Assembly (NCBI GenBank): GCA_964633995.1
Contig: CAZWKN010000001.1
Location: 134,527 to 198,526, forward strand
Length of the DNA stretch: 64,000 nt
Direction of reading: 5' to 3'
Source of the DNA: an uncultured Gammaproteobacteria bacterium
Lineage (GTDB): Bacteria > Patescibacteriota > Microgenomatia > CAZETR01 > Amesbacteraceae
In this document: positions 23,236 through 63,069 of the stretch, in pieces
Layout of the letters: every line of letters starts with the position of its first letter
Numbering within the stretch: position 1 is the first letter of the stretch
Made by a program: the position numbers and the translations under genes
Notes under the pieces: generated by a model
Database searches by the model: none
Told to the model about the DNA's origin: nothing
The model's input: the letters and a program-made list of their open reading frames with translations, nothing else

Positions 23236-23829
23236 TTAGCCCGTGAGTTCAATCACAAAGTGGTCCAATATAAGTTTGACATTACAGTTGGATTTGAGAT
23301 ACTTGCGAGTGTCAGAGACTAGATGATAGATCTTAGATGCTAGATGAGGGTTGGAAACAATTAAGTGTTGGTGAGTGTATTGTTCAAGGTCGGCTAAAAA
23401 GGACAAAGAGGACTCTCTGGTAAAAGCTTGAGCTTCCATTAGAGTAAGGCGAGTTTGAAAAGAATCGGCTGCTAAAAGTGAGGTGATAAACGAGAAGTCG
23501 GGGGTTTGGGGGGTATGGATGATAGTTGGTAGTAATTCTACCCGGGATAAAATGGTAGGCAGGAGCGAGTTTGGCTGAGAAGTAAGCAGGTATATTTGGG
23601 AATTTCCAGGGGGTTCCTCGAGAGTTTTGAGAATGGCGTGTTGGGCGGTAGTAGTAAGAAGCTCGGCGTTAAAAATGACTACGGTGTTGCGGGGTGATTG
23701 GGCGGGTTTTCTGGATAAAAAATTTTGGATGGTCCGGATTTCTTCTATTCCTATGGAGGTGTCGGGGTGAATTTCCAGTGTGTCAGGTGAAGCTGGAAGG
23801 TCAATTTTGTCGGTGAGAAATGCGTGCAT
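23236..23829 (-). CDS. holB: DNA polymerase III delta-prime subunit-like (short)
   Basis: 197 aa; AQHAILKTLEEPPGNSQIYLLT and TILSRVE are clamp-loader delta-prime/tau box motifs; no P-loop. Confidence 0.65.
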   Translation of the reverse strand: MHAFLTDKIDLPASPDTLEIHPDTSIGIEEIRTIQNFLSRKPAQSPRNTVVIFNAELLTTTAQHAILKTLEEPPGNSQIYLLTSQPNSLLPTILSRVELLPTIIHTPQTPDFSFITSLLAADSFQTRLTLMEAQAFTRESSLSFLADLEQYTHQHLIVSNPHLASKIYHLVSDTRKYLKSNCNVKLILDHFVIELTG

Positions 23830-23848
23830 ATGTTGTATTATTGATTAT

Positions 23849-25600: not shown

Positions 25601-26661
25601 CGATAACTCAACTTTTGACATACGTTTCCGAAAAAAAAGCATCCGATTTACATTTGGTGGTGGGGTCTCAACCGCTAGTCAGAATAGATGGAGAACTGAT
25701 AGCTGTTCCGGGCGAAGGAGTTTTAGATGCTTTTTCTGTGGAGCAATTGATGAATGGTGTACTGTCGACGGAACAAAAACAACTTTTATTAGCAAATAAG
25801 GAATTGGATTTTTCATTTGCAGTGGGCAATAGCTCAAGGTTTAGGGTCAATGCGTACTTTCAGAAAAACACGATGGCGGGAAGTTTTAGGGCCGTGCCGG
25901 CCACCATTCCCTCCTTGGAAATGTTGGGACTACCAAAAATTTGTAGAGATTTAACGAGTTTAAAACAGGGTTTTGTATTGGTAACCGGGCCAACGGGTCA
26001 GGGAAAATCAACGACATTGGCTGCAATTTTAGAGACTATAAATCAAACCAGATCTGCGCACATTGTGACAATTGAGGATCCTGTTGAATATGTTTATACA
26101 CCTGTTAAATCGGTAATTACCCAGCGGGAGATGCATAACGATACTCACTCTTGGAGTGTGGCACTAAGATCGGTATTAAGAGAAGATCCTGACGTGGTGC
26201 TGGTAGGAGAAATGCGGGATTATGAAACAATTGCCGCTGCTTTGACAGTCGCCGAAACTGGTCATTTAGTGTTTGCGACGTTGCACACTAATTCGGCCGC
26301 CCAGACGATTGATCGGATTGTGGATGTTTTTCCGGAGAATCAACAACCTCAGGTTAGGTTGCAACTGTCCAACAATTTGGAAGCAGTATTTTCTCAGAGG
26401 TTAGTGCCAAAGATTGGTGGAGGTAGGGTTGTGGCTTATGAAGTTATGCTGGGAACTTCGGCGGTCAAAACGGCAATAAGAGAGGGCAGAACTCATATGT
26501 TGGATAATATTATTATGACTTCTGGAGAAGTGGGAATGGTGACACTGGAAGCGGTATTGGCTGGGTTTTATAAGAACGGAAAAATTTCTTTGGACGTGGC
26601 GAATGCGTATGCTTTGCGACCTTCTGACATTGCCCGATTTTCCAAAGAAGGTGAAGTATGA
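25597..26661 (+). CDS. pilT: Twitching-motility retraction ATPase PilT
   Basis: 354 aa; VTGPTGQGKSTTLAA Walker A; AIRTAIREGRTH-like C-terminal PilT motif. Confidence 0.9.
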   Translation: MTITQLLTYVSEKKASDLHLVVGSQPLVRIDGELIAVPGEGVLDAFSVEQLMNGVLSTEQKQLLLANKELDFSFAVGNSSRFRVNAYFQKNTMAGSFRAVPATIPSLEMLGLPKICRDLTSLKQGFVLVTGPTGQGKSTTLAAILETINQTRSAHIVTIEDPVEYVYTPVKSVITQREMHNDTHSWSVALRSVLREDPDVVLVGEMRDYETIAAALTVAETGHLVFATLHTNSAAQTIDRIVDVFPENQQPQVRLQLSNNLEAVFSQRLVPKIGGGRVVAYEVMLGTSAVKTAIREGRTHMLDNIIMTSGEVGMVTLEAVLAGFYKNGKISLDVANAYALRPSDIARFSKEGEV

Positions 26662-27860
26662 AATTTGCATATACCGCGAAGTCCATGGGGGGGCAGAAGC
26701 AAAAGGGTCAGGTAGACGCCGTTTCGGTGCAGAACGCCGTTGAGTCTATCAGAGGTCAGGGTTTGGTACCTATTACGGTAACAGAAGTTAAGATGGGGAT
26801 TGGTTTGGGAGAATTGGGAATAGGAATTAGTGGAGTGAAATCGTCTGATATTGCCAATTTTACGAGACAACTTTCGACTATGATTACGGCTGGGTTGCCG
26901 TTGACCGATGCGCTTTCTTTGTTGAAAGCTCAATCCCCTCCTCCATTGGCGAAGGTGGTCTCGGAAATATTACTGGATGTACAGTCAGGAATTTCTTTAT
27001 CGGCCGCGATGGCTAAGCATCCTAAGGTCTTTTCTAAAGTGTATGTAGCGCTGGTTAAAGCCGGAGAAGCGGCTGGGGTGATGGAGACTGTCTTAAATCG
27101 ATTGGCAGAAAATACTGAAAAGAGCCGAGAATTTTCGGGCAAAGTGAAAGGGGCGATGGTGTATCCGGTGATTGTATTGATAGGCATGGCTATCGTTATG
27201 GCGGTAATGGTGCTTTTTGTGGTACCGAAATTAACAGCGATGTATGCGGATTTTGGAGCTGAGTTGCCGATTGCCACAAAAATGGTGATGTCCATATCGG
27301 ATTTTTCAATTCATTATTGGTGGTTGGCGGCCATAGTGATCGTCGGAGGTGTATTTGGAGGAAAAGCGTATCTACAAACATCGATAGGCAGGTACCAGTG
27401 GGACGAACTGGTCTATAAAATTCCTGTGTGGGGAGCTTTGGGTAGGCAAATAATGTTGACTGAATTAACCGGAACATTAGGACTACTTGTGGGGTCTGGG
27501 GTTTCGGTGGTTGAGGCATTAAATATCGTTTCAGGAGCTGTGGGGAATGTGGTGGTGGAGAAGGATGTAAAACGAATTGCTAAACAGGTTGAAAAAGGGT
27601 TTCCGGTGTCAATTAGTTTTTCTGAAAGTTTGGTGTTTCCTCCGATTGTGGGGCAAATGGTGGCAGTGGGAGAAGAGACGGGAAAGATGGATGATGTGCT
27701 GTCTAAGCTGGAACATTTTTTTGGTTCTGAGTCTGAGCAAAAGGTTAAGGCATTGACAACAGCGATAGAGCCGCTAATAATAATCGTATTGGCAGTCGGT
27801 GTGGGTTTTTTGATGTATGCCATCGTTATGCCTATTTATGGAATTACTAATAAGTTTTGA
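26658..27860 (+). CDS. pilC: Type IV pilus platform protein PilC (GspF family)
   Basis: 400 aa; two GspF repeats each followed by hydrophobic helices. Confidence 0.9.
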   Translation: MKFAYTAKSMGGQKQKGQVDAVSVQNAVESIRGQGLVPITVTEVKMGIGLGELGIGISGVKSSDIANFTRQLSTMITAGLPLTDALSLLKAQSPPPLAKVVSEILLDVQSGISLSAAMAKHPKVFSKVYVALVKAGEAAGVMETVLNRLAENTEKSREFSGKVKGAMVYPVIVLIGMAIVMAVMVLFVVPKLTAMYADFGAELPIATKMVMSISDFSIHYWWLAAIVIVGGVFGGKAYLQTSIGRYQWDELVYKIPVWGALGRQIMLTELTGTLGLLVGSGVSVVEALNIVSGAVGNVVVEKDVKRIAKQVEKGFPVSISFSESLVFPPIVGQMVAVGEETGKMDDVLSKLEHFFGSESEQKVKALTTAIEPLIIIVLAVGVGFLMYAIVMPIYGITNKF

Positions 27861-27887
27861 TATGTGTAGAAGGGAGGTGAGCGAATA

Positions 27888-28400
27888 ATGTTTAATATTA
27901 AAAAGGGTTTTACGTTGATTGAACTTTTGGTAGTAATTGGTTTGTTGGCTGTTATTTCCGCCGGAGTTGTTGCGCTCATCAACCCACAGGATAAATTGAA
28001 TGCCGGTAATGATGCCGGAGTTCAGAATTCTATTGGTGAAATTGGGACAGCTGCTCAAGCATATGCTGCTACTCATAGTGGAAATTATCCCGGTTTGGAT
28101 TCCGATACGGTATTGGTTACGACAGGAGATTTGACTGTATGGCCAACTTCTCCAAACGGAACCATTACTGATGGATCTACGTGCGCAGTTTCCGGAGGAG
28201 CCGGATGTACTAGGTATACAGTTTATGCGCCAGTGAAATCGAAGAAGTACGCTTCTTCGTTGGGAGTTGCGACTGGAACTGGAGGCACTGTAGCTGCTTG
28301 TGGAGCTGCTAATGCTTACTGGTTGTGGACATCAAATACTGGTAAGGCATGTTTGTATTGTGGAGCGCCAGTTGCTGATGGGACAATGAGTTGTCCGTGA
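27888..28400 (+). CDS. Type IV (major) pilin
   Basis: MFNIKKGFTLIELLVVIGLLAVISAGVVALI: class III signal with G-F cleavage site and Glu+5; C-terminal Cys pairs. Confidence 0.8.
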   Translation: MFNIKKGFTLIELLVVIGLLAVISAGVVALINPQDKLNAGNDAGVQNSIGEIGTAAQAYAATHSGNYPGLDSDTVLVTTGDLTVWPTSPNGTITDGSTCAVSGGAGCTRYTVYAPVKSKKYASSLGVATGTGGTVAACGAANAYWLWTSNTGKACLYCGAPVADGTMSCP

Positions 28401-28462
28401 TTGGTTTAGTAAGTTTTGTTACACCGGCCGAAAGGCCGGTGTTTGGGTTTAGGGAGATACAT

Positions 28463-28503
28463 GTCATCGCGAACCCCGCCAAGGCGGGGTGTGGCGATCT
28501 GAC
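28463..28503 (+). terminator. Nested-hairpin repeat element downstream of the major pilin gene (probable terminator/processing hairpin)
   Basis: GTCATCGC-GAA-CCCCGCC-AAG-GCGGGG-TGTG-GCGATCTGAC; inverse-orientation homologue of 5025-5062 with a compensatory inner stem. Confidence 0.55.
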
Positions 28504-28560
28504 GAGATTGCTTCCATGTGCCCGCAACGACACTCCCCTTCCCTTTCCACCTCACCCCTG

Positions 28561-28586
28561 CCCTTCTCCACAATTGTGGAGAAGGG
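28561..28586 (+). repeat. Hairpin CCCTTCTCCACAATTGTGGAGAAGGG, partner of the nested-hairpin element
   Basis: Homologous to 4991-5014 (CCCTCTCCTGGATTCAGGAGAGGG); a C-rich spacer precedes it. Confidence 0.5.
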
Positions 28587-28609
28587 GGTGTTGCGGTTAG
28601 AATGGAGGC

Positions 28610-29338
28610 ATGGAAGTTGTGTTTTTTGTGTTGGGGGCGGTGATGGGGAGTGTGGCGAATGCCATTATTGATAGACTTCCTCGAAATGAAGCATGGAGTA
28701 AGGGTAGGTCTCATTGTGATAAGTGTAATCATTCGTTGGGGTTATTTGACTTGATACCATTAATTTCCTTTTTAACCCTTGCCGGTAAATGTAGGTATTG
28801 TAAAAAACAGATACCAAAGCGTAATTTTGTCGTGGAATTGTTTTTGGGTTTGGGCTTTTTGGTGATAAGTCGGATAGGACACATGGGACTGATAGGACAA
28901 ATACTATTGATGGGGATGTTGTGGGTGACGACGATAATCGCGGTTATGGATTGGGAAACTAAACTAGTATCCGAATTATTGGTGTTTGTGTGGTGGATAC
29001 TAGTAGTTTTTCAGTTAAACAGTTTTTCAGTTCTTCAGTTGACGGGATTAATTGCTGGTGTTGGTGTAATTGGGGGAATATGGGCGGTGACGCGTGGGAG
29101 AGCGATGGGGTTTGGGGACGTAGAAATAGTTGCTGTTATGGGATGGTGGTTGGGGTGGCCAAAGATTGGGGTGGCTTTGTGGATGGCGTTTGTAGTAGGG
29201 GCAATATTTGGCATTTATCATTTGACATTTAGACAGTTGAAATTGAAAAGTGAGATTGCGTTTGGGCCGTTTTTGATTTTGGGGACATGGGTAGCTTATT
29301 TTGGAGGAGAGACTATAATTAAATTACTAAATTTTTAA
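28610..29338 (+). CDS. pilD: Prepilin peptidase PilD (A24 family)
   Basis: 242 aa; N-terminal CDKC...CRYC zinc-binding pairs, 6-7 TM helices, catalytic Asp regions. Confidence 0.85.
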   Translation: MEVVFFVLGAVMGSVANAIIDRLPRNEAWSKGRSHCDKCNHSLGLFDLIPLISFLTLAGKCRYCKKQIPKRNFVVELFLGLGFLVISRIGHMGLIGQILLMGMLWVTTIIAVMDWETKLVSELLVFVWWILVVFQLNSFSVLQLTGLIAGVGVIGGIWAVTRGRAMGFGDVEIVAVMGWWLGWPKIGVALWMAFVVGAIFGIYHLTFRQLKLKSEIAFGPFLILGTWVAYFGGETIIKLLNF

Positions 29339-29361
29339 TTTTAAATTTTTAATTTTTAAAC

Positions 29362-29847
29362 ATGGTGAAAGATTTTTCTATATTCGATTGGACTAAAAAC
29401 GAGATAGTGTTTGTCGGGGCTGTTTTGGTAGCGATTGTGGTGATTTCTACTAATCAATTACTGACGTCCCAGATGAGAACTAGGGACGCACAAAGAAGGG
29501 CCGATACCGAGCTGGTAGCCAGGGCGATTGGAGCTTATTTTGAGGACTATAAAACACTACCTCTGTCTGAAAATGGAAAAATAGTGGCGTGTGGAGATAA
29601 GGGATTATCGATATGTGAATGGGGGCAGGGTCAGATAGTTGATAAAGACAATGTAACCTATTTGAAAAAATTGCCGGAAGATCCATGGAAATATAAAGGA
29701 TATAAATATGTGTATGAAGTGGATGAGAAAAACCAGACGTTTAGAGTGTATGCGTTTTTGGAAAATTTAAGCGACAAAACCAGGAAGGCGCATTTGACAG
29801 TGCAGTGTGGAAACAATGTACAATGTAGTTGGTATGCACCGAACTAA
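29362..29847 (+). CDS. Pilin-fold (GspG-like) protein with non-canonical N-terminus
   Basis: 161 aa; hydrophobic helix IVFVGAVLVAIVVIS, then RDAQRRADTELVARAIGAYFEDYKTLP (GspG-like block); no G-F-T-L-I-E prepilin cleavage motif. Confidence 0.5.
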   Translation: MVKDFSIFDWTKNEIVFVGAVLVAIVVISTNQLLTSQMRTRDAQRRADTELVARAIGAYFEDYKTLPLSENGKIVACGDKGLSICEWGQGQIVDKDNVTYLKKLPEDPWKYKGYKYVYEVDEKNQTFRVYAFLENLSDKTRKAHLTVQCGNNVQCSWYAPN

Positions 29848-30355
29848 TATATTGCGTATTGCGTATTACAGATTACATATAAATTTGGGGTTTACTCTAG
29901 TTGAGTTGTTGGTGTCGATTGGCCTGTTGGCGGTTTTGTCTGCCGGAGTGGTGTCTATTATTGGTACTGGACCTGCCAAAACCGGCAGGGATGGCAAACG
30001 CCAGACCGATTTGCAATCAATTGCTTCGGCATTGGAGCTGTACAGAAATGATAACGGGACTTATCCCCAATGCACTGGCGGGGTCACTGGATGTACTGCA
30101 GGTTCGTTGGTTAATGGGACTGGTATGCCGTCGTTTTCTGGTTATTTGTCAACTATTCCCGGAGATGTAAAATCTCCGACGAGGGAATATCGATATGCTC
30201 CACTTGATTCAAGTTCTAACGCCTGTGATGGCACCTTGGGTGATAAGTGTGTAAAGTATTCGTTGTGCGCCGCATTGGAAAATGGTACTGGTTCGGTGGT
30301 GGGCTGTGGAACTTGTGGTGCAACAACGTGTAATGTTTTGGTCCTTAGTCCATGA
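29834..30355 (+). CDS. Type IV pilin / pseudopilin (GspG-like)
   Basis: Leader MHRTNILRIAYYRLHINLG then FTLVELLVSIGLLAVL; KRQTDLQSIASALELYRNDNGTYP GspG signature; C-terminal Cys pairs. Confidence 0.7.
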   Translation: MHRTNILRIAYYRLHINLGFTLVELLVSIGLLAVLSAGVVSIIGTGPAKTGRDGKRQTDLQSIASALELYRNDNGTYPQCTGGVTGCTAGSLVNGTGMPSFSGYLSTIPGDVKSPTREYRYAPLDSSSNACDGTLGDKCVKYSLCAALENGTGSVVGCGTCGATTCNVLVLSP

Positions 30356-30807
30356 AAAAAGGCTTTACCCTCATTGAGTTGATGGTCGGGATTGGGTTGG
30401 TGACAGTTATCACCAGTTTTGGAGTGGCTAGTTTTCGAACTTCATCCAGGAGACAGGCGGTGGATACGGCAGCTGATAGATTGAGACAAGTCTTGCTTCA
30501 GGCGAGAAGTAATGCGTTATATGGAAAGAAGGAATGTACTGGTGGGCCATTGGACGGTTGGCGGGTAGTGGTGGTAGGTAGGACGGTTGTGTTAGAGAAC
30601 GTGTGTGTGGGAAATATTATATCGAGACCCCTAGAGACATTTGCTGGTACCACAGTTAGTGTTTCACCCAATGCTACGATCTTGTTTAAGCCCATTGGGC
30701 AGGGAATTGAGAACGGTTCGGCGTTGTCTACAATGTTTTCTGTGGCCGATTCTTCGATTTCTTACACTAAAACCATAACAGTTACACAGAAGGGGGATGT
30801 AAATTGA
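30352..30807 (+). CDS. Pseudopilin (GspH-like minor pilin)
   Basis: MKKGFTLIELMVGIGLVTVI prepilin N-terminus. Confidence 0.7.
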   Translation: MKKGFTLIELMVGIGLVTVITSFGVASFRTSSRRQAVDTAADRLRQVLLQARSNALYGKKECTGGPLDGWRVVVVGRTVVLENVCVGNIISRPLETFAGTTVSVSPNATILFKPIGQGIENGSALSTMFSVADSSISYTKTITVTQKGDVN

Positions 30808-31238
30808 AAAGAGGGCAAATGATTGTGGAAGCATTAGTGGCGTTTGCCATAGCCATGGTGGCTTTATTGGGACTGGCTCAGGTGACAAATAAATCCGTAG
30901 GTAATTCCGGATTGTCTAAGAGGCAATCGGAAGCGACAGCGTATGCGTCCAGGGTTGTAGAATATCTACGCGATCAAAAAAATACCCAGGGGTGGAGTGG
31001 ACTTAAATCTAGTTATTCTGGGAGCAATTATTGCTATGACGGCTCGACATTAAATGCCTTAGCAAGTTGCGTGATAACGGGAACTGAATTTACTAGCACC
31101 GTTACTGTCGCGTACGTGACCCCTACCCCGCCAGGTCCTGCCGGATCTGAAATTATGAAGATAAGTTCAAATGTTTCGTGGGTGGAAGGAGGATTAACTC
31201 ATTTTGCTAAACAATCTGCGGAATTGGTTAAATACTGA
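30804..31238 (+). CDS. Pseudopilin (GspI/PilV-like minor pilin)
   Basis: MKRGQMIVEALVAFAIAMVALLGL N-terminus (cleavage after G, Glu+5). Confidence 0.6.
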   Translation: MKRGQMIVEALVAFAIAMVALLGLAQVTNKSVGNSGLSKRQSEATAYASRVVEYLRDQKNTQGWSGLKSSYSGSNYCYDGSTLNALASCVITGTEFTSTVTVAYVTPTPPGPAGSEIMKISSNVSWVEGGLTHFAKQSAELVKY

Positions 31239-31239
31239 C

Positions 31240-31710
31240 ATGAAAGGTTTTTCGTTGATCGAAATAATTGTCGGAATTGGGTTGATGGCTTTGATTTCGA
31301 TGACGGCGACATTGCTACTAACCTCTTCTTTGCGTAGTGCCAGAAAAGCGGCGGCAATTGCACTGGTTAAAAACGAGGGTAATTGGATACTTAATTCGAT
31401 GGTGGGGATGACAAAATACGCGGCTAGTATTTCGACTTGTAATGCGAATCAGTTGAGTGTACTTAGACTTGATGGAACAACGATTGATTATACGTTTTCC
31501 GGGACATCAATAGCATCGAACGGGGCCAATCTGAATTCGAATGGAGTAAGTGTAAGTAGTTGTGCTCCGGTGTTTACGTGCTCGTCTTCTTCTAGCGTGA
31601 CAATTTGTTTTAATTTGGAAAAAGCGGGAGCGACGGATGTAACGGATAGATCTTCGGTGTCAGGAATTCAGTTCAAAAAACAAGTGGTTTTGCGCAACTT
31701 CGGCAATTGA
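31240..31710 (+). CDS. Pseudopilin (GspJ/PilW-like minor pilin)
   Basis: Start MKGFSLIEIIVGIGLMALI (31240). Confidence 0.65.
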   Translation: MKGFSLIEIIVGIGLMALISMTATLLLTSSLRSARKAAAIALVKNEGNWILNSMVGMTKYAASISTCNANQLSVLRLDGTTIDYTFSGTSIASNGANLNSNGVSVSSCAPVFTCSSSSSVTICFNLEKAGATDVTDRSSVSGIQFKKQVVLRNFGN

Positions 31711-31742
31711 CAACCAAGTCAGTAAATCAGCATAATGGAACC

Positions 31743-32498
31743 ATGAAACGCGGTCAGGCGGTATTGATGGTGTTGCTGATAATGTCGGTGGCTCTAACTT
31801 TGGGTTTGGCGGTGGTATCCAGAAGTGTGACGGAAATTAATGTGTCTACCACTCAAGAAGAATCGTCTAAGGCTTTGGAGGCTGCGGAGGCCGGAGTAGA
31901 AAATGCGTTGGGTGGAGTGGTGGCTGGGCCGTCGGGTGGAGGAACATTGACTGGAACAAATGCTACGTTTTCGGTAGCTAATACTAGTGTGGGTGGGGGC
32001 GGATCGTATAGTACAGTTGATGCAATTGAGCCGGGTGATGTGATAACGGTTGATGTGACTGGTACCAGTCAAAATATTAAACTATGCTGGGGTACTGAGA
32101 CAGGAATTACGCCTGCGGTTGAGGTTATGTTGTATTACGACAATTCGGGTGTAAAGGTGGCCAGATGGGGGTATGATCCTCAAAACAGCCCGGTCAGGCC
32201 AAATGGTTTTGATAATGGATCTGACGGTAATTGTACTGGTGGGTTTAATTATTCTAAAAATATGACCTTGACCGTAACAGGAGCCCGAAGATATTTGAGG
32301 ATTCGGCCTTTGTATAACTCGACTAAATTTAGTTTGGTAGCAGCCGGTGGTGATAGTTTCCCCACACAAGGTCAGGATATAACATCGACCGGACAGGCAG
32401 GATCAGTAAGTCAAAAGATCCATGTGACAGTTTCTAATTCTGATTTGCCAACAATGTTTGATAACGCTATTTTTTCCGGGACGAGTTTGACTAAATAA
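31743..32498 (+). CDS. PilX/GspK-like minor pilin
   Basis: Start MKRGQAVLMVLLIMSVALTLGLAVVSRS (PilX_N-like), large Gly/Thr-rich C-terminal domain. Confidence 0.6.
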   Translation: MKRGQAVLMVLLIMSVALTLGLAVVSRSVTEINVSTTQEESSKALEAAEAGVENALGGVVAGPSGGGTLTGTNATFSVANTSVGGGGSYSTVDAIEPGDVITVDVTGTSQNIKLCWGTETGITPAVEVMLYYDNSGVKVARWGYDPQNSPVRPNGFDNGSDGNCTGGFNYSKNMTLTVTGARRYLRIRPLYNSTKFSLVAAGGDSFPTQGQDITSTGQAGSVSQKIHVTVSNSDLPTMFDNAIFSGTSLTK

Positions 32499-32499
32499 T

Positions 32500-33522
32500 A
32501 TGAGTGATCTGCCCAAAATAGGAATTGATATAGGTTCCACGTCGATAAAACTGGTGGAGCTGATGCCAAACGGCCACAACAAGTGGAAATTGTTGTCTGC
32601 TGCCACAATGGGATCTCCAAAAGGTGGGGTAATGGGAAACCAGAATAATTTGGCGTCTGTGACGGCGGCAGTGGTTAAAATTTTAAAAGAAGCATCTGTT
32701 AAAAGTAAGCGGGTGGTGGTGGCCCTGCCGGAAGAGCAGGTATCTTCACACGTGGTGGAGATGCCCCTGATGAATGACGATGAGATTAGGCAAGCTTTGC
32801 AGTGGCAGGTAGAACAATATATTCCGATTCCAGCAGATAAGGCGGTTTGGAGTTATGAAGTAATAAAAAAGGATCAGGCGGGTGGGGGCATGGAAGTACT
32901 TTTGGTGGCTGCTGCTAAGAGTTTGGTAGCTTCTTATACCCAGGTGCTTGAACAAGCAGGGTTAGAGGTTGTAGCGCTTGAAACAGAATTGATGGCCTCT
33001 ACCAGGTCCGAGGTGCCGGATAACTACCCCCTGTCCATGCTAGTTGATATAGGATCTAGGAGTACGGATTTGGGAGTGGTTAGGAATAGTCAGTTGGTAT
33101 TTACCCGGACAATTCCAACAGCTGGTGATGCGTTTTCGAGGGCAATTGAGTCCGGTTTGGGATTGGATAGTGTACAAGCTGAACAATATAAAAACACTTA
33201 TGGTTTTATACAAGGCAGGTTGGATGGAAAACTAGTCGCCGTAATGACACCGGTTTTAAATATTATCGGGGCGGAGATTAAAAAAACGATAGACTTTTAT
33301 ACGTCTAAGCACGCAGGCGAAACGCTGAAAGTCATTACTTTGTCAGGCGGGGTTTCTTTACTGCCTGAAGTCGTGGGGCTGATATCGGGATTGGTGGGCG
33401 TAGAAGTGTCGGTTGGTAATCCTTTTGCTAAGGTGAGTTTGGACCAAAAACAATCGAAGTCGCTTTTGGGGAGTGCACCTTTTTATGGTGTTGCGACAGG
33501 ATTGGCAATGAGAACAATATGA
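32500..33522 (+). CDS. pilM: Type IV pilus assembly protein PilM (actin-like ATPase fold)
   Basis: 340 aa; IGIDIGSTSIKLVEL N-terminal actin-fold phosphate-1 motif, SLSGGVS-type C-terminal motif. Confidence 0.85.
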   Translation: MSDLPKIGIDIGSTSIKLVELMPNGHNKWKLLSAATMGSPKGGVMGNQNNLASVTAAVVKILKEASVKSKRVVVALPEEQVSSHVVEMPLMNDDEIRQALQWQVEQYIPIPADKAVWSYEVIKKDQAGGGMEVLLVAAAKSLVASYTQVLEQAGLEVVALETELMASTRSEVPDNYPLSMLVDIGSRSTDLGVVRNSQLVFTRTIPTAGDAFSRAIESGLGLDSVQAEQYKNTYGFIQGRLDGKLVAVMTPVLNIIGAEIKKTIDFYTSKHAGETLKVITLSGGVSLLPEVVGLISGLVGVEVSVGNPFAKVSLDQKQSKSLLGSAPFYGVATGLAMRTI

Positions 33523-34037
33523 TCAATCTAAAGCCTGAGAAACAGAAAAGTTCCGGACTTTTTGAAAAATACAGGAAGCCTGTTTTACTACTGACTACAC
33601 TTGTTTTTGTAAGCTATATAGTTACGATTTCGGGTTTGACTGGATGGTGGGTTTATTGGAATAGGAAAGAAATAGTGACTACGGCAGAGGAAGTGAGCTT
33701 GCAAAAGCAGATTAATGCAATGGTTACAAAAGAAGTTTTGTACCGCAAACAGGAGGGTCGGGTGAGGGATCTGGATAGATTTTTGGGGGAGTTTGTAAGT
33801 ACTGCTAGTTTATCGGGAATGTTGGTAGACGATAGTATTGAGGTACTGGCGTGGGATTTTGATTTAAATACGGCAAAACAGAATATTTCAGTTAGTTCGA
33901 GAAAAAATGCTGATTTGGTGAAGTTTTCTGACAAATTGGCTAACAGATACTCGTCTGTAGTTGCCGGGCCAATTACATTAGATGACAATGGAACTTGGGA
34001 AATGGTCGTGAGCGTGAAAGGAGACAAGTGGAAATAA
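33519..34037 (+). CDS. pilN: PilN-like pilus assembly protein
   Basis: 172 aa; short cytoplasmic N-terminus (PilM-binding), single TM, coiled-coil periplasmic domain; 4-nt overlap with pilM. Confidence 0.7.
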   Translation: MINLKPEKQKSSGLFEKYRKPVLLLTTLVFVSYIVTISGLTGWWVYWNRKEIVTTAEEVSLQKQINAMVTKEVLYRKQEGRVRDLDRFLGEFVSTASLSGMLVDDSIEVLAWDFDLNTAKQNISVSSRKNADLVKFSDKLANRYSSVVAGPITLDDNGTWEMVVSVKGDKWK

Positions 34038-34054
34038 TTAAGAAGAGTTTGTGG

Positions 34055-34705
34055 ATGGTGTATCCATTGATGGTTATGGTATTTATATTCTTGAGTTTGA
34101 ATTATTTGTTTGGAGCAGGTCAAGAATTTCAACGCTTTGTGGATAGGCAAAAAAATGTAGGTGATTTGGAGGTTCGGATAGCAAGTTTAAAAAACAAGTT
34201 GGCGGTGGTTTCGGGGGTGAATGTGGTAGAAACTGAAAATAATTTAAAAACACTTTTGGAAGCCATGCCGCCTGCAAGACGGTTGTGGGTGGTGGTAAGT
34301 GAAGTGCGATTGGCAGCATCTGAATCAGGGTTGGTGGTGGATGCGTTTAGGGGGGTAGGGGGAGAAGTAAGGGAGTCGTCTGGGGCAGCTGAGGCCTTGG
34401 TGTTGGATGTGGATTTGAAGGTGGGAGGCGTCGGAGAACTTAGAGATTTTCTTTCAAAGCTTGAGAGCAAAAAACCATTAGTTAAGGTTAAGAAAATTAA
34501 ATATGACGGGAATCAGGTGACTGTATCGGTGGAAGGGGCGTGGTCTGCGTGGACTAAACTGACTACCGATACTAATTTACCACTGAAACCTTATGGGTCC
34601 CTTTTGGCAGCCGTGTTAAAAAAGCTGGAGGGTTATGAAGGATTGGGGAATACAAGCCAAGGTGTAAGTAGTGGATCTGGAGAGGTAAATACTAATCCGT
34701 TTTGA
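34055..34705 (+). CDS. pilO: PilO-like pilus assembly protein
   Basis: Start MVYPLMVMVFIFLSL (TM), coiled-coil, Gly/Val-rich C-terminus; position after pilN. Confidence 0.55.
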   Translation: MVYPLMVMVFIFLSLNYLFGAGQEFQRFVDRQKNVGDLEVRIASLKNKLAVVSGVNVVETENNLKTLLEAMPPARRLWVVVSEVRLAASESGLVVDAFRGVGGEVRESSGAAEALVLDVDLKVGGVGELRDFLSKLESKKPLVKVKKIKYDGNQVTVSVEGAWSAWTKLTTDTNLPLKPYGSLLAAVLKKLEGYEGLGNTSQGVSSGSGEVNTNPF

Positions 34706-58151: not shown

Positions 58152-58258
58152 GCGGGTATAATTAATTATCGGGGTGTATCGGAAGGACTTGGGGCCCCTG
58201 CCCCAAAACTTCCTCTATCTCTCGCAAAGCTCGTGATAATTCATCGGCTTGAAAATTT
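58152..58258 (+). promoter_or_regulatory. Structured tRNA-leader repeat (copy C) upstream of tRNA-Pro
   Basis: gcgggtata...tcggaaggacttggggcccctgccccaaaacttcctctatctctcgc; same family as 63003-63069 and 63390-63456. Confidence 0.55.
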
Positions 58259-58330
58259 CGGGGTGTAATTCATCGGTAGAATGCTCGGTTTGGGACCGAG
58301 ATGCACGGGGTTCAATTCCCCGCACCCCGA
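58259..58330 (+). tRNA. tRNA-Pro (anticodon UGG)
   Basis: Manual fold: C1-G72 acceptor CGGGGUG/CACCCCG (typical bacterial tRNA-Pro), anticodon loop UUUGGGA, T-loop GGTTCAATTCC. Confidence 0.8.
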
Positions 58331-58367
58331 CAGATAGATATTTTTTTGATATATAGGTTAAAATCAA

Positions 58368-58838
58368 GTGGTGAGTAGCCTTGACGTATTATTGAGAAAA
58401 TCGGGTAAGACGTTTTTGTCGATTTTTGCGGTCTCAGCTATTTTGCCGGTGATGCTGTTTGGGGTATTGGGAAAGGGAAATTTCAACTTTTTGACCAAGG
58501 CTGATCAGCCAACAGAACTTCAGATTTGGTTTGAACCGGATGAAGTTGTTTCCCGAGTTGGTCTGCCTGTACGGGTAAAGGTAATGGGACTGTATGATGA
58601 CAAGGCCAGATTAATTCCCAGTGTAGAAGCGGTTGTGGATGGCGGTGGGGAGGTGGCGATTTTTCCATCAAAAATTGAATACGGGACAGCATTTACCGGG
58701 CAAGTAGTCTTGGGTGAAATTAGTTTGGTTTCAAAGTCTATGGGAAAGTATGAGGTAACAATTCCTCAGGAGAAGGTTTTTACCGGTTTGCCCAATTTGA
58801 CGATTTTGTCCAGCCCATTGACGGTTGTCGCTAAATAG
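58368..58838 (+). CDS. Hypothetical membrane-anchored protein at the head of the second pseudopilin operon
   Basis: 156 aa; N-terminal TM, beta-rich C-terminus. Confidence 0.4.
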   Translation: MVSSLDVLLRKSGKTFLSIFAVSAILPVMLFGVLGKGNFNFLTKADQPTELQIWFEPDEVVSRVGLPVRVKVMGLYDDKARLIPSVEAVVDGGGEVAIFPSKIEYGTAFTGQVVLGEISLVSKSMGKYEVTIPQEKVFTGLPNLTILSSPLTVVAK

Positions 58839-58845
58839 ATTTTTT

Positions 58846-59283
58846 ATGAAATTAAATCCTGCCCTGACACTTATAGAAGTACTTGTGGTGACGGCATTGA
58901 TTGCAGCTTTTTCGGTTGGGTCGTTGATTGCGTATTTTAATATTCAAAGCAAGCAGGCTCTGCAGTCGTCTGTGGATAGATTTGCCAACGTGGCCAAGAG
59001 TGCCAGAATTTACGCAAGGGAAAGCAAGGGAGGAAAGGCGTGGGGAGTTAAATCGGTTGATTCTAAATCTTATTCTTTAGTTTCCGGAAAAAAAGAGGCA
59101 CCTGTCTTGGAGGGGCAGTATGGACTTGAATCGCCCGTTGAGTTTGACTCGGGGTTTGAATTTTGGTTTAACCAGGGCGAGGGTACATTGAACGATCCGG
59201 TCTCGGTTAGGTTTAGGGTGGAGAGAAACGCTACGTATAAACAAGTGGATATTTCTTTGACGGGAGTCGTTCAGATTTTATAG
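58846..59283 (+). CDS. Pseudopilin (GspH-like)
   Basis: Start MKLNPALTLIEVLVVTALIAAF (prepilin N-terminus, Glu+5). Confidence 0.6.
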   Translation: MKLNPALTLIEVLVVTALIAAFSVGSLIAYFNIQSKQALQSSVDRFANVAKSARIYARESKGGKAWGVKSVDSKSYSLVSGKKEAPVLEGQYGLESPVEFDSGFEFWFNQGEGTLNDPVSVRFRVERNATYKQVDISLTGVVQIL

Positions 59284-59284
59284 T

Positions 59285-59773
59285 ATGAAAAAAGGAACTA
59301 CTCTATTAGAAGTATTAATATCGTTGGCCATCTTGGGGATTTTGATGGGAAGTTTTTTCCCGACAGTGGCTTTTTTGACACGCCAGTCAAGAAAATTTCA
59401 ATATGACAGTGAGGCTTCTTCTGTACTACAAGAAGGAATGGAAATTGCTTATAACGTTTTTTTGACTAACTGGAATGCAGTGAGTGACACAGGGACATAT
59501 CATCCGGTTTTGAATGCAAGTGTGGACCCTAACATATGGGGTTTGGAACCGGACGAAAAGATGGTTCGGTCGAGGTATACAAGAAAAATAGAGGTATTTC
59601 GGGTATGCAGAAATTTGAGTTCTGGTCAACAAAAAACAGGAGAATGTATAAGTGGTAACGACTATGATCTCAATAGCAGGTTAATCAAGACAACTGTTAT
59701 CTGGAAAGAAAATCAGGTAGATAGGGAAATTGCGTCCGAATTGTTAATTACTAGATTGCCGGATAATTTATGA
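59285..59773 (+). CDS. Pseudopilin (GspI/J-like)
   Basis: MKKGTTLLEVLISLAILGIL prepilin N-terminus. Confidence 0.6.
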   Translation: MKKGTTLLEVLISLAILGILMGSFFPTVAFLTRQSRKFQYDSEASSVLQEGMEIAYNVFLTNWNAVSDTGTYHPVLNASVDPNIWGLEPDEKMVRSRYTRKIEVFRVCRNLSSGQQKTGECISGNDYDLNSRLIKTTVIWKENQVDREIASELLITRLPDNL

Positions 59774-60222
59774 AGAAGGGATTTACATTAATAGAATTAT
59801 TGTTGGCTGTTTCTTTGTCGGGGGTAATTTTTGTCGTAGTGAGTTCCCTGCTTATGTTTGTGGTAACTTCTGACTTAAAAAATAAACGCCAAGAAGCCTT
59901 TGAACAAGTGAAAAACGATATGCAAATAGAACTATCGAACGCTGTAAGATGGGGGAAGGAGATCTCGTATAGTGCGGGAGAACTAGTGATAGATGGGGTT
60001 ACGTACCGACTGTTGGATGGGCGGATGTATAAAAATGCCGACCCGATCACATCAGCCGGAGTAACTATAAAAAGTTTCGGAATAAACAACTTCAGTAATG
60101 ACCTGCGGTATGTGAGCCTTAGTATTGACCTTGAGATGGAAGATAGAAGTTATGCACTATCAAACGACGTATTGACCATAGTTGTTTCTCAAAGGAAAAC
60201 GCAGTTGGGAGAGAGTATATGA
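59770..60222 (+). CDS. Pseudopilin (GspJ/PilW-like)
   Basis: MKKGFTLIELLLAVSLSGVIFVVV prepilin N-terminus; 4-nt overlaps on both sides. Confidence 0.65.
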   Translation: MKKGFTLIELLLAVSLSGVIFVVVSSLLMFVVTSDLKNKRQEAFEQVKNDMQIELSNAVRWGKEISYSAGELVIDGVTYRLLDGRMYKNADPITSAGVTIKSFGINNFSNDLRYVSLSIDLEMEDRSYALSNDVLTIVVSQRKTQLGESI

Positions 60223-61373
60223 GAAAGGGGTTTTCGAGTTTGATTGTTATCTTTGTTTTGTCTGTTGTAGCTATGTTTGTTTTTGTAGCCTGGCAATCAC
60301 GGATATTACTGTCTATTTCTAGGAGCCAGTCGTTATCTGATATGTTGAAATCTACTTACATTGCGGAATCGTGGATTAATGACGTGATAGCGCGATTTGT
60401 TGGCAATTATCCTGCTGCGTTTAGTTTTCCTTTTCTAAATACCAACACACTTGGGGATGGGACGGTGGTGAAGTCTGAAGGGGTGTCCGGCGAAGGAGTC
60501 GAAAAAATTAAAGTTACTGCCTCGAGGCAATTTGCATCCAGTGGAATAGAGCTGGAAAGACGGACTACGGCGTTGCCGGTGAATGCCATAGATAATGTAA
60601 AAATAGTTTTGAACATTGACTGCACCAGAAGCATGAACAACAAAGCAGATGCGGCGTGTACGACTGGGTGCACTAGCAGAATGCATGAAGCAAAGTTGGC
60701 GGCCAGAAATTTTGCAGAAGCCGTAAAACAATTTAATACCACACACGCCGCTCCGGTGTTGGAGTTGGGTTTATCGACATTTGCGTTAAATAGTAAATGG
60801 GTGACGGATTCGGTGGGAAATGAATTGGTCCCCGGAAGCGATATCGATAGAATTATAGAAGGTATTGATGATAACTTTTCGGACACTCAGGAGGACAGCA
60901 GGGCATGCAGATCCCCTCTTAACAGTGGGGCTACTAATATTGGTGTAGGGCTGGAGTTTATGAATAATTATTTTGTGGGCGTAGGAGCAAATATTCGGGA
61001 AAAAAGGATCGAAGTGGTAATTACCGATGGGGAGCCTAATTCGACTAACGTGAATGATTATTGTGGCGCTACCTCTTGCACTTTGCACTGTGCTGATGCT
61101 GCCAGAAGACTTCTGGCTTGTGATTTGGCAAAAGATAGTGTGTTGGTAAGTGAGGTGGGTAAGCTTGGTCTACGGCCGGAGGGGGTGGAGGCGTATTCGG
61201 TTACAATCTCTAATGAAGTAGCCCAGGAAACTAAGGATATTTTGACGAGTTATTCTAATCAGTATTTTGATTCTGCCAACGCAACGAAATTAAATGGGGT
61301 ATTACAAACATTGCTGTCACAAATAATTGAAAGTTCCAGCGGTATCACAATCAGGAGGGTGTTACCTTTATGA
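60219..61373 (+). CDS. Pilin-like N-terminus fused to von Willebrand factor A (vWA) domain: putative pilus-tip adhesin/GspK-like
   Basis: MRKGFSSLIVIFVLSVVAM pseudopilin-like N-terminus; IVLNIDCTRSMNN (DxTxS MIDAS-like) ... ITDGEPNST (vWA). Confidence 0.55.
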   Translation: MRKGFSSLIVIFVLSVVAMFVFVAWQSRILLSISRSQSLSDMLKSTYIAESWINDVIARFVGNYPAAFSFPFLNTNTLGDGTVVKSEGVSGEGVEKIKVTASRQFASSGIELERRTTALPVNAIDNVKIVLNIDCTRSMNNKADAACTTGCTSRMHEAKLAARNFAEAVKQFNTTHAAPVLELGLSTFALNSKWVTDSVGNELVPGSDIDRIIEGIDDNFSDTQEDSRACRSPLNSGATNIGVGLEFMNNYFVGVGANIREKRIEVVITDGEPNSTNVNDYCGATSCTLHCADAARRLLACDLAKDSVLVSEVGKLGLRPEGVEAYSVTISNEVAQETKDILTSYSNQYFDSANATKLNGVLQTLLSQIIESSSGITIRRVLPL

Positions 61374-62410
61374 AAAAGTTGTTAATTTTTTTATTGGTTG
61401 TGAGCAGTTTGGTAATGGTGGTTGGAAAATTAATTATGAAAAAACAAAGTGTGGATGTTTTACGAACCGATTGGACAAGGGGAAATGCCGGTGCTTCAGT
61501 CCTATTGGTTGAATATGGCGATTTCCAGTGTCCGTCGTGTGGGGCTTATTATCCGATAATAAAGCAATTGGAGACCGAGTATAAAGATAAATTGGCTGTG
61601 GTGTTTAGACAATACCCACTAGAACATGTGCATAAAAATGCCCTTGCTGCCGCAAAAGCTGCTGAGGCAGCGGGAGAGCTGGGTAAATTTTGGGAGATGC
61701 ACGATGTGTTGTTTGAGAAGCAAAAGGAGTGGGTTGATTTGGATAATCCCCTGCCAAAATTTAATGAGTATGCCCAGGGGTTGGGTCTTTCCAAAGATAG
61801 ATTTAACAGCTTGATGAATGACGCAAAAATAGAGACAAATATAAGAGCAGATATGGCAACAGGAGACAAGGCAAATGTAGAAGGAACCCCCACTTTTTTT
61901 GTAAACGGAAAGATAATAGGATTGCCGGGAGGGCTAGAGGGGTTTAAAAAAATTATTAATGGGGCTTCGGTCGATACTTCTGAAAAAGTACACGATCATT
62001 TCGATTTTGCAATGTATACAGATTTGGGTGATAAGATGAATTTTGCCAAGCCTGAATTTATGGAGAGGGACGAGGCTATTCACATGCATGACAACAATGG
62101 CGAGGTGGTGCATATTCATTCAAAAGGCGTGACGCTTGGTCAGTTTTTAAAATCAATCGGCGAAGAAAGTCCGGCAGAGGCGGCTTGGTATGTAAATGGT
62201 GTAAAAATGAACGGTCCCTTGGATAATTATCAGCCGAAAGATTTGGATAGAATTGTGGTTAATATTATGGGAATCGGGCAGACGTTAAATAATGCGGTGT
62301 TAGATAAGATGGTGTCGGACAAAGCCTGCATTTATTCCGAGAAATGTCCGGAACGGGGCAAACCTCCTACGGAAGAGTGTGTGGGTGGTTTGGGGACAGA
62401 TTGCAAATAA
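61370..62410 (+). CDS. DsbA-like thiol:disulfide oxidoreductase with extra C-terminal domain
   Basis: Signal/anchor; LVEYGDFQCPSCGAYYP (CxxC thioredoxin fold), TPTFFVNGK (cis-Pro loop region); about 150-aa C-terminal extension with a terminal Cys cluster. Confidence 0.65.
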   Translation: MKKLLIFLLVVSSLVMVVGKLIMKKQSVDVLRTDWTRGNAGASVLLVEYGDFQCPSCGAYYPIIKQLETEYKDKLAVVFRQYPLEHVHKNALAAAKAAEAAGELGKFWEMHDVLFEKQKEWVDLDNPLPKFNEYAQGLGLSKDRFNSLMNDAKIETNIRADMATGDKANVEGTPTFFVNGKIIGLPGGLEGFKKIINGASVDTSEKVHDHFDFAMYTDLGDKMNFAKPEFMERDEAIHMHDNNGEVVHIHSKGVTLGQFLKSIGEESPAEAAWYVNGVKMNGPLDNYQPKDLDRIVVNIMGIGQTLNNAVLDKMVSDKACIYSEKCPERGKPPTEECVGGLGTDCK

Positions 62411-62412
62411 AT

Positions 62413-62991
62413 ATGACTTCACGGACCCACGATTTGTTTGCTTTTACATTCCTGGCCGGAACCGTAGCTTATTTTCAATTGGGAGCTATGAGTTTGTCGA
62501 CTGCCGTAGTAGCTCTGGCGACTGGATTTTTGGGAGGGTTGGCGCCGGATTTAGACGAGCCTGGGTCTGCTCTGTGGCGAAGACTACCAGCTGGATCTGG
62601 ATCGATAGTAGGAAGAATAGTGGCCCCGATATTCGGATCACATAGGTTTATTTCCCATTCCATAGTTGGATTATGTTTGTTTGGATTTGGAGCTAAAAGA
62701 TTGTTGGATCTCGTATCCCCTGTAGTGCTAGTAGACATGAATGTGGTGTGGTGGGGCTTTGTGTTGGGAGTAGTTTCCCATTTGGTAGCAGATTCACTAA
62801 CCGTGGAGGGTGTGCCGTGGCTGTGGCCTTTGAAATGGAAATTTGGTTTCCCCCCATTTGCGTTTTTGCGAATAAAGACGGGAGGGTTTTTGGAAAAATT
62901 TTTGGTGTTCCCTGCTCTACTGGGTTTAAACGGAGCGCTTTTTTATTACCGTTATCAAATCTTTTTAAATTTTATCAAGGGGTTGGTATAA
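62413..62991 (+). CDS. Membrane-bound metal-dependent hydrolase (DUF457/YdjM-like)
   Basis: Start MTSRTHDLFAFTFLAG; H/D-rich motifs (HDLF, HSIVG, SHLVAD) across about 5 TM helices. Confidence 0.5.
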   Translation: MTSRTHDLFAFTFLAGTVAYFQLGAMSLSTAVVALATGFLGGLAPDLDEPGSALWRRLPAGSGSIVGRIVAPIFGSHRFISHSIVGLCLFGFGAKRLLDLVSPVVLVDMNVVWWGFVLGVVSHLVADSLTVEGVPWLWPLKWKFGFPPFAFLRIKTGGFLEKFLVFPALLGLNGALFYYRYQIFLNFIKGLV

Positions 62992-63002: not shown

Positions 63003-63069
63003 GCGGGTATATCAGAAAGACTTGGAACTGATGTTCCAAAATTTCTTCTATACTCCGCTCGCCACGCTC
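63003..63069 (+). promoter_or_regulatory. Structured tRNA-leader repeat (copy A) preceding the truncated tRNA-Gly copy
   Basis: gcgggtatatcagaaagacttggaactgatgttccaaaatttcttctatactccgctcgc; inner and outer stems differ from copies B and C by compensatory substitutions. Confidence 0.55.

Follow-up and report, generated by a model that had tools for sequence, protein, structure and literature searches.

A satellite minor-pilin operon encoding a von Willebrand A-domain pilin and a DsbA-like oxidoreductase in a Patescibacteria-type bacterium

We report here on a cluster of six co-directional genes, w1–w6, found in a 64,000-nucleotide (nt) stretch of DNA (contig CAZWKN010000001.1, referred to below as the window) from an ultrasmall bacterium of CPR (candidate phyla radiation)/Patescibacteria type. 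Judged by its gene content and gene order, this locus is a satellite copy of the H-I-J-K tip or priming set of minor pilins which is also present in the main type IV pilus (T4P) locus of the same window, and in this copy the K-position pilin, w5, carries a vWA (von Willebrand A) domain and the last gene, w6, encodes a DsbA-like oxidoreductase. Our preferred interpretation, which we hold with moderate confidence, is that the locus serves, as a satellite module, to build an alternative tip for the pilus, with w6 oxidising the cysteine-containing pilins.

The K-position protein is a modular pilin with a vWA domain

An earlier reading of the window, made from the sequence alone, had proposed that the 384-aa (amino acid) product of w5 is a prepilin-type N-terminus fused to a vWA domain with a metal ion-dependent adhesion site (MIDAS), and this is borne out by structure prediction, fold matches and residue conservation. 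The N-terminus reads MRKG/FSSLIVIFVLSVVAMFVFVAW (here and below the slash marks the predicted cleavage site, with the junction in w5 being MRKG/FSSLI), which is a short basic leader ending in Gly and followed by a hydrophobic helix, and Gly occupies position −1 in 49/51 members of the w5 family. The loss of a cleavable signal, named beforehand as the finding that would overturn the proposal, was not what we found. At position +5, all 51/51 family members have Ile, Leu, Val or Met and none has Glu; as the lack of Glu5 is a known exception among GspK/PilX-type subunits, it indicates the K type and leaves the pilin status of w5 standing.

The AlphaFold2 (AF2) model of w5, built on the 51 family members and with a predicted local distance difference test (pLDDT) score of 91.3, has a helix at residues 2–61, a four-stranded sheet at 72–115 and a vWA fold at 126–381, and the four predicted strands which follow the N-terminal helix (72–77, 83–91, 94–103 and 106–115) are consistent with a pilin fold. 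The best Foldseek match of the model in the PDB was Streptococcus sanguinis PilB (7ba2/7b7p, E 6.6e-10), aligned over 380 columns which include the pilin module, and the 135 PDB chains found at E <= 0.001 also include the vWF A3 and integrin I domains, the anthrax receptor vWA domain and RrgA. The MIDAS consists of D134-x-T136-x-S138, T239 and D270 (within ITDGEPN) and is well conserved across the 51 family members, with D134 found in 51/51, Thr or Ser at position 136 in 51/51, S138 in 49/51, T239 in 48/51 and D270 in 51/51.

The w5 family is rare, with about 104 clusters at 50% identity among the 1.84 billion representative proteins that we searched exhaustively, and it was this search which supplied the family: a word-indexed search with w5 returned one relative, the 51-sequence profile returned nothing usable, and an alignment of five w5 sequences led to four metagenome loci only. 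Nearly all of the strong matches are 360–475 aa long and about half of them align end to end in one stretch.

The layout of w5 is that of the GspK/PilX-type subunits, as it is the last gene of an H-I-J-K set, has no Glu5 and has an enlarged globular part. The view that w5 acts like a GspK/PilX-type tip minor pilin is supported, while membership of these families by sequence is not, with no match to a T2SSK or PilX family in Pfam or NCBIfam. Two other assignments were rejected. A PilY1-type adhesin would have a beta-propeller, and w5 has none, its vWA domain ending at residue 381/384, and w5 is itself a pilin (nor is there a PilY1-like ORF (open reading frame) elsewhere in the cluster); a TadG-type vWA pseudopilin would have a TadE-like N-terminus, and none was seen in Pfam.

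w2–w5 resemble the minor pilins of the main T4P locus

The three smaller pilins encoded upstream of w5 are roughly equal in size. The prepilin N-termini of w3 (MKKG/TTLLE) and w4 (MKKG/FTLIE) score 24.6 and 22.9 bits against the Pfam N_methyl model, above its cut-off of 21.2, and that of w2 reads MKLNPA/LTLIE, with Ala at −1 and Glu at +5 in register. Weak NCBIfam matches were found linking w2 with GspH and ComGD, w3 with ComGE (2e-09) and GspI, and w4 with ComGF and GspJ, and these follow the order H, I, J ahead of the larger w5 without Glu5.

The presence of Ala instead of Gly at −1 of the H-like pilin (PA/LTLIE; window 58846–58870) is conserved in the related loci L002, L005, L010, L023 and L084, and the L001 H-like pilin differs at +1 only (PA/FTLVE). 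Ala at this position of a predicted cleavage site is unusual among PilD substrates.

The main T4P locus, from which the cluster was correctly said to be separate in the sequence-only reading, lies about 24 kb away and holds the only PilD and the only ATPases of the window. When the two sets of pilins were compared using hhalign, the best partner of w2 was the main-locus H-like pilin (92.5%), w4 was matched to its J-like counterpart at 96% (126 columns), and the best partner of the w5 pilin module was the K-like protein (E 1e-3, 95 columns), which also lacks Glu5. Both in the window and in the related loci, the cluster includes no ATPase, platform, peptidase or major-pilin gene, and no ATPase, platform or peptidase gene adjoins it in any of the nine lineages we read (flanks of up to 10 kb were covered for the related loci, which are referred to by L numbers). 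Taken together, the H, J and K pairings, the H-I-J order and the absence of motor genes indicate a paralogous H-I-J-K minor-pilin set and not a second filament system. The suggestion that the locus encodes an adhesive fibre or competence-type pseudopilus standing alone has to be given up for this reason, as there is no major pilin, ATPase, platform or peptidase and the four pilins map onto the main H-I-J-K set.

The first gene of the cluster, w1, encodes an N-terminal hydrophobic segment, which may be a membrane anchor or a signal sequence, followed by a beta-rich domain of about 105 aa. No significant match was found in Pfam, NCBIfam or PDB sequences using the single sequence or a 9-sequence profile, and w1 orthologues head the cluster in L002, L005, L010, L023, L084, L089, L090 and L091.

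w6 is a DsbA-like protein with an additional His- and Cys-containing domain

The product of w6 was described from its sequence as a CxxC thioredoxin-fold protein with a C-terminal domain of about 150 aa, and we can confirm this description: it matches Thioredoxin_4 (4.8e-27, 95.6 bits) and DSBA (9.8e-14, 52 bits) above the cut-offs of both families, and an additional domain of about 145 residues follows. The active-site residues C54 and C57 (CPSC) and the cis-Pro loop T173-P174 are invariant, as is expected of the DsbA family. In the AF2 model (pLDDT 88.5), the DsbA domain was found to be most like Bacillus subtilis BdbD (3eu3) among PDB structures, with TsdA, MdbA and ScsC also matched, and the fold matches to BdbD, TsdA and alpha-DsbA1/2 have TM-scores (TMt) of 0.75–0.82. 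No other DsbA-like gene occurs in the 64-kb window, and no DsbB, VKOR or BdbC gene for a re-oxidising partner is found in the cluster.

Apart from roughly its last 20 residues, the C-terminal domain is confidently modelled. Six of its His are invariant, arranged as three HxH pairs, and it has four invariant Cys which sit in the near-invariant low-confidence tail, ACIYSEKCPERGxPPTExCVGGLGTDC. Neither the single sequence nor a 15-sequence profile matched anything in Pfam, NCBIfam or PDB sequences. The order of secondary structure elements in the model is beta-beta-beta-alpha-beta-beta with the pattern 'VNG...DLDRI', and this may resemble the beta-grasp (ThiS/MoaD-like) fold. The domain, which also occurs in L071, L074 and L076–L081, is fused to DsbA across the Patescibacteria and in some DPANN archaea, and in Peribacteria, Kerfeldbacteria and DPANN it is also found on its own, following a signal peptide.

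Within the cluster, the likely substrates of such an enzyme are w5 and w3, which have eight and two Cys, respectively, and none is found in w1, w2 or w4. The w5 family has six conserved Cys (C135, C230, C282, C287, C291 and C301), of which C135 sits inside the MIDAS loop (D-C-T-x-S), and 96% of the 51 members have an even number of Cys. The w3 pair, C108 and C121, is kept in 11/11 orthologues, and orthologues of w1 and w2 are Cys-free in all cases and those of w4 in most. The claim that the operon encodes cysteine-rich subunits thus stands for the vWA pilin and one pair in w3, but not for w1, w2 and w4.

The DsbA gene is a conserved partner of the pilin cluster in one sub-clade

At least eight other lineages share the order of genes in the cluster, with protein identities of about 30–50%, and because it has been kept over such distances we do not regard the cluster as a chance arrangement. 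The complete order w1-w2-w3-w4-w5-DsbA was found in eight lineages (the window, L005/L009, L010, L023, L002/L073 (Candidatus Amesbacteria), L089, L090 and L091), and when further members of the DsbA clade were sampled, the same five genes were seen directly upstream in the last three of these. Neighbour-joining (NJ) trees of the DsbA proteins place all of the cluster-linked copies in one clade (94/100 bootstrap), and a DsbA of this clade lies directly 3' of the cluster in 8/9 informative lineages. At least two genomes also have a paralogue outside the clade (L009 with L013, and L023 with L052). On this comparison of gene order and sequence, the view that in one sub-clade the DsbA-like gene has been conserved as an operon partner of the pilin cluster, and is not a chance neighbour, is supported; a chance neighbourhood of the DsbA gene was rejected because of the adjacency in 8/9 lineages and the distinct clade.

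L007 keeps the window's upstream neighbours, a methyltransferase (52% identical) and a 187-aa protein (60% identical), but neither the pilin cluster nor the tRNA/M14-like stretch separates these from its clade DsbA gene (the regions compared were window 54988–58331, L007 4575–8047 and L023 160–741). As the upstream neighbours are kept, L007 looks like a rearrangement, and the comparison suggests that the pilin cluster was either gained next to an existing DsbA gene, by insertion, or lost from that position.

This Patescibacteria-type gene is found in many public metagenome-assembled genome (MAG) records which bear titles such as 'uncultured Gammaproteobacteria', 'Pseudomonadales' or 'archaeon' (L009, L010, L013, L016, L023 and others). 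Their gene content resembles Microgenomates/WWE3-type contigs and the titles are probably unreliable; in the DsbA tree, L016 is nearest to L075, a complete WWE3 genome.

Proposed role of the locus and alternative explanations

We propose that w2–w5 would be cleaved by the single PilD and would then assemble in the membrane, as a paralogous H-I-J-K set, into a priming complex beneath which the main machinery (PilB, PilC, PilM and their neighbours) could extend a filament of the main-locus major pilin, so that the complex would end at the pilus tip. Here w5, as a first-in subunit without Glu5 of the GspK/PilX type, would cap the complex and display its vWA domain, and the MIDAS metal site would bind a ligand, in all likelihood a protein on the surface of the host cell or substrate of these epibiotic bacteria. 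w6, which would be translated together with the pilins of its operon and held by an anchor on the outer face of the membrane, may introduce disulfides among the six conserved Cys of w5 and at the one pair of w3, and w1 would be a conserved secreted or anchored accessory protein.

A number of observations weigh against this scheme. At the level of the pilins, w3 found no match in hhalign to the main-locus I-position pilin, and because of this the H-I-J-K assignment rests on gene order and weak matches; the w2 N-terminus scores 16.8 bits against N_methyl, below the cut-off of 21.2, and of the three prepilin-type pseudopilins previously counted here, w3 and w4 pass the threshold and w2 has its Glu at +5 in register only. 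The Pfam VWA model (PF00092) gives w5 19.4 bits (E 1.3e-3) against a cut-off of 23.8, and the vWA membership of w5 therefore rests on its fold and motif; the Pfam check that had been recommended for this locus was positive for N_methyl in w3 and w4 and for DSBA in w6, and fell short for VWA, while the recommended structure prediction recovered both modules of w5 and, bar its extreme C-terminus, the additional domain of w6. An Amesbacteria orthologue of w5, from outside the 51-member set, has a degenerate MIDAS (DCSAR for D-x-T-x-S and VSGEQTN for ITDGEPN). At the level of gene order, the cluster is present in the L083–L085 lineage with no DsbA gene downstream, and L007 and L088, which form one sub-lineage, have a clade DsbA without the cluster. 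L023 has a tandem partial set 1.5 kb downstream of its complete module (10462–12703), consisting of an I-like, a J-like and a vWA K-like pilin (P0206), and this set is without w1, an H-like pilin and a DsbA gene of its own. Finally, the main-locus pilins also carry 2–8 Cys each (27888–32498; six in the major-pilin candidate, eight in a 182-aa GspG-like protein and 2–4 in the others). As these pilins are Cys-rich, disulfide formation would matter for the whole pilus and not for the satellite operon alone, and, with no DsbA-like gene other than w6 in the window, the substrates of w6 may extend beyond its own operon.

This last point leads to the alternative which survives best, and to which we would give a modest chance: that the DsbA-like gene encodes a general envelope oxidoreductase, with a role in housekeeping, copper or oxidative stress, and that its link with the pilin cluster goes no further than a common transcription unit in one clade, without any particular tie to the vWA pilin. 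The w6 family is large and the same domain architecture is widespread in the Patescibacteria and found in some DPANN archaea, with pilin genes near only 4/66 full-length species-representative loci and none nearby in the other 62/66. Elsewhere in the family, the commonest neighbours are a P-type ATPase with an HMA domain, seen in 22 loci, and a further DsbA-like protein, seen in 21; a membrane protein of the DsbD_2+cupredoxin kind, an M56/BlaR-type protein and its Penicillinase_R repressor, a CDF transporter and a YtkA-like protein also recur, so that the setting of the wider family is a copper and envelope-redox neighbourhood. The general role is also favoured by the ScsC copper-resistance proteins among the fold matches of w6, by the methionine sulfoxide reductase genes MsrB and MsrA which follow the DsbA gene in L002 and L005, by L007, which shares the upstream neighbours yet has no pilin cluster, and by the Cys-rich pilins of the main locus together with the lack of any second DsbA-like gene in the window. 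Set against these are the separate clade of the cluster-linked copies (94/100) with two genomes keeping another copy elsewhere, an adjacency held in 8/9 lineages while protein identities dropped to about 30–50%, and the 4-nt overlap of w5 and w6. The earlier description of w6 as a dedicated DsbA can be kept for the sub-clade and not for the wider family; in the same way, the prospect raised with it, that the gene might prove to be an unrelated neighbour in most genomes, is not realised in the pilin-linked clade but would be if the whole family were considered.

Returning to the tip-module interpretation, it might also be argued that the module tips a competence (DNA-uptake) pilus and that the enlarged K-type pilin is a DNA receptor or a cell-wall-spanning element instead of an adhesin for host surfaces. 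This would fit with the weak family matches to ComGD, ComGE and ComGF, with a w6 DsbA domain most like BdbD, which serves the Com pilus (PMC8262900), and with the link made between Patescibacteria T4P and DNA uptake in addition to host binding (PMC11623550). We nonetheless consider it decidedly unlikely, as the module added to the pilin has a vWA fold and a fully conserved MIDAS, a site which binds protein ligands in S. sanguinis PilB and in eukaryotic proteins (PMC8179133), as the cluster has no DNA-binding domain and no ComEA or ComEC gene, and as the Com pilin matches are far below threshold and mostly cover the N-terminal helix.

It is highly improbable that the locus encodes the filament of a further, independent system (a T2SS (type II secretion system)-like endopilus, or an additional pilus driven by a motor of its own) with one of w2–w4 as the major subunit. 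Some bacteria, including Saccharibacteria, do have two T4P systems in separate loci (PMC11623550), and our view is limited to 64 kb of the genome, but ATPase, platform and peptidase genes are absent beside the cluster in all nine lineages read, w2–w4 are similar in size and pair with different minor pilins and none with the major pilin, and priming sets have just this layout of H, I, J and a K without Glu5. As motor genes lie beside the cluster in no lineage, we rejected a second pilus or T2SS independent of the main locus.

Comparison with known systems

The closest precedent for w5 is S. sanguinis PilB, a bimodular minor pilin with a vWA/MIDAS module for which a crystal structure is available and which is an adhesin argued to be located at the tip (PMC8179133). 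Both proteins have a class III signal peptide, a pilin module and a C-terminal vWA domain with a MIDAS, both come from monoderm organisms and both are proposed tip adhesins. The two share only 13–15% aligned identity and may be independent fusions, and unlike PilB, w5 is in the K position of an H-I-J-K set, has no Glu5, has six conserved Cys (one of them in the MIDAS loop) and is found in an operon with an oxidoreductase; the PilB paper reports no disulfides and the term is absent from its text (PMC8179133).

The cluster as a whole is like the core minor-pilin sets GspH-I-J-K of the T2SS, FimU-PilV-W-X plus PilY1 of the type IVa pilus (T4aP) and ComGD-E-F-G in having four consecutive small prepilin genes with the last one enlarged and without Glu5, in being encoded apart from the motor, and in being a second paralogous set in the same genome. 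It differs from the PilY1 systems in that the vWA domain is fused straight to a K-type pilin, with no separate PilY1 and no beta-propeller, and from GspK in having no GspK alpha-domain, and all matches to the core minor-pilin families are under the curated thresholds. In Pseudomonas aeruginosa, PilY1 has a Cys-rich vWA domain at the tip and the vWA cysteines affect its force-dependent behaviour (PMC8806160).

Among the Patescibacteria, PilX pilins with large domains are host-binding factors and proposed tip proteins in Saccharibacteria (PMC11623550). PilX1 and PilX2 of Nanosynbacter lyticus TM7x are, like w5, minor pilins that carry a large accessory domain at the C-terminus, and without PilX2 host binding is not efficient (PMC11623550). 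Their accessory domains are lectin-like and beta-propeller domains and not vWA, no oxidoreductase is reported in their loci, and they belong to Saccharibacteria and not to a Microgenomates-like lineage as seen here.

For w6, the most obvious parallels are BdbD/BdbC, MdbA (Actinomyces and Corynebacterium) and TcpG (Vibrio cholerae), which are extracytoplasmic DsbA-fold enzymes required for pilin disulfides. BdbD, MdbA and TcpG are encoded by general or unlinked genes and have a membrane partner (BdbC, DsbB or VKOR), and the CPSC active-site motif is presumably shared by BdbD. Unlike these enzymes, w6 is encoded inside a pilin operon with no partner gene in the cluster and has an additional domain with six His and four Cys (His6/Cys4). 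In B. subtilis, BdbD acts with BdbC to introduce disulfides into the competence pilin ComGC, and BdbD is required for this (PMC8262900). The ScsC/copper-linked DsbA-like proteins provide a second parallel, as they have a DsbA fold and are among the w6 fold matches, and the wider w6 family is mostly found beside copper-type transporters and regulators; in the pilin-linked clade this copper neighbourhood is lost, no ScsB/ScsD-type partner is seen, and the C-terminal domain has no counterpart in the matched ScsC structures.

Each element of the locus thus has a precedent, with the vWA modular pilin in S. sanguinis PilB, large-domain tip pilins in PilX, duplicate minor-pilin sets, and DsbA-type pilin enzymes in BdbD, and it is the combination of known parts which is new. 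In the literature linking Patescibacteria, DsbA, copper or pilins, we found no description of a vWA domain on a Glu5-less K-type pilin of an H-I-J-K set, nor of a satellite H-I-J-K operon or an in-operon DsbA paralogue with a His6/Cys4 domain.

Patescibacteria live attached to other cells, and to our knowledge their adhesins are largely unknown outside the Saccharibacteria. T4P are the best-supported attachment device of this group (PMC11623550). Our analysis names a concrete adhesin candidate, a vWA/MIDAS tip pilin of Microgenomates-like lineages, and indicates that an alternative tip set can persist as a satellite operon with its own oxidative-folding enzyme.

We see the His6/Cys4 domain of the DsbA protein as the most novel lead, which may explain disulfide formation in organisms without a respiratory chain. 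In a more speculative extension, which we think rather unlikely to be correct, w6 would be a self-contained, quinone-independent disulfide-generating enzyme that replaces DsbB/VKOR in ultrasmall bacteria and archaea; CPR and DPANN organisms are not known to have respiratory quinones. The six His would hold a metal, probably copper, the four Cys of the flexible tail would carry electrons from the DsbA CxxC to it, and a pilus-tip operon would have taken in one paralogue of the enzyme for the folding of its Cys-rich vWA adhesin, with which the cells hold on to their hosts.

Locus layout and flanking features

The six genes were first listed as ORFs and the list agrees with an independent gene call for a public contig of identical sequence, which has the same products in the same order followed by a 192-aa YdjM-family gene (coordinates are given in Table 1). 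The 4-nt overlaps that had been claimed for all junctions were found at w3/w4, w4/w5 and w5/w6 (3/5 junctions, each ATGA), but not at w1/w2, which are 7 nt apart if the start codon that the public gene call gives w2 (ATG at 58846) is taken, or at w2/w3, where there is a 1-nt spacer. The YdjM gene starts 2 nt after w6 and is possibly the last gene of the transcription unit. A consensus scan found no terminator-like sites on the + strand in the intergenic gaps from w1 to the YdjM gene, and two + strand matches (61101–61117 and 62125–62137) fall inside the w5 and w6 coding sequences; promoter-like sites in the region are no more numerous than in shuffled sequence and are weak evidence.

Table 1. 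Coordinates of the features discussed, in window positions.
Feature	Position (nt)	Strand	Comment
w1	58368..58838	+	156 aa; conserved first gene of module
w2	58846..59283	+	145 aa; GspH/ComGD-like minor pilin
w3	59285..59773	+	162 aa; I-position minor pilin
w4	59770..60222	+	150 aa; J-position minor pilin
w5	60219..61373	+	384 aa; K-position modular pilin
w5 leader MRKG	60219-60230	+	
w5 pilin module	60231-60563	+	aa 5-115
w5 vWA/MIDAS module	60594-61361	+	aa 126-381
w6	61370..62410	+	346 aa; DsbA-like oxidoreductase, membrane-anchored or secreted
w6 DsbA domain	61466-61960	+	aa 33-197; CPSC aa 54-57 at 61529-61540
w6 C-terminal domain	61976-62407	+	aa 203-346; 6 invariant His, 4 invariant Cys
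YdjM-family membrane protein	62413..62991	+	192 aa; PF04307 9.4e-24
tRNA-Pro	58259-58331		Directly upstream of w1
Promoter-like site	58335..58364	+	Just 5' of w1, directly after tRNA-Pro; consensus scan only, 9/12 matches
Terminator-like hairpin	63022..63039	+	3' of YdjM gene; consensus scan only, weak evidence
Main T4P locus	23780..34705	+	About 24 kb from w1-w6; Pfam matches
PilB	23780-25600	+	Main T4P locus
PilT	25597-26661	+	Main T4P locus
PilC	26658-27860	+	Main T4P locus
Major-pilin candidate	27888-28400	+	170 aa; main T4P locus
PilD	28610-29338	+	A24_N_bact 5.5e-26, Peptidase_A24 6e-11
Main-locus minor pilins	29362-32498	+	From N-termini and Cys counts
Main-locus H-like pilin	30352-30807	+	
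Main-locus J-like pilin	31204-31710	+	
Main-locus K-like protein	31707-32498	+	263 aa; MKRG/QAVLM, no Glu5; weak PilX_N match
PilM	32500-33522	+	Main T4P locus
PilN/O-position genes	33519-34705	+	Main T4P locus

A YdjM-family gene (PF04307) is also found within a few bases 3' of the DsbA gene in L023 (8988–9566) and L089 (8084–8659), as in the window, and in L090 it lies 3.7 kb downstream of the DsbA gene at 11831–12409. In L002/L073 and L005/L009, the MsrB and MsrA genes occupy the YdjM position. The site of the cluster in the window is flanked by a dense tRNA cluster (56336–57001) and by tRNA-Pro (58259–58331). The GC skew of the + strand was found to be positive in every 2-kb step across the window (1–64000) and very high, ranging from 0.08 to 0.39 and mostly above 0.2, and was lower yet still positive where the genes run on the − strand (about 41–53 kb).

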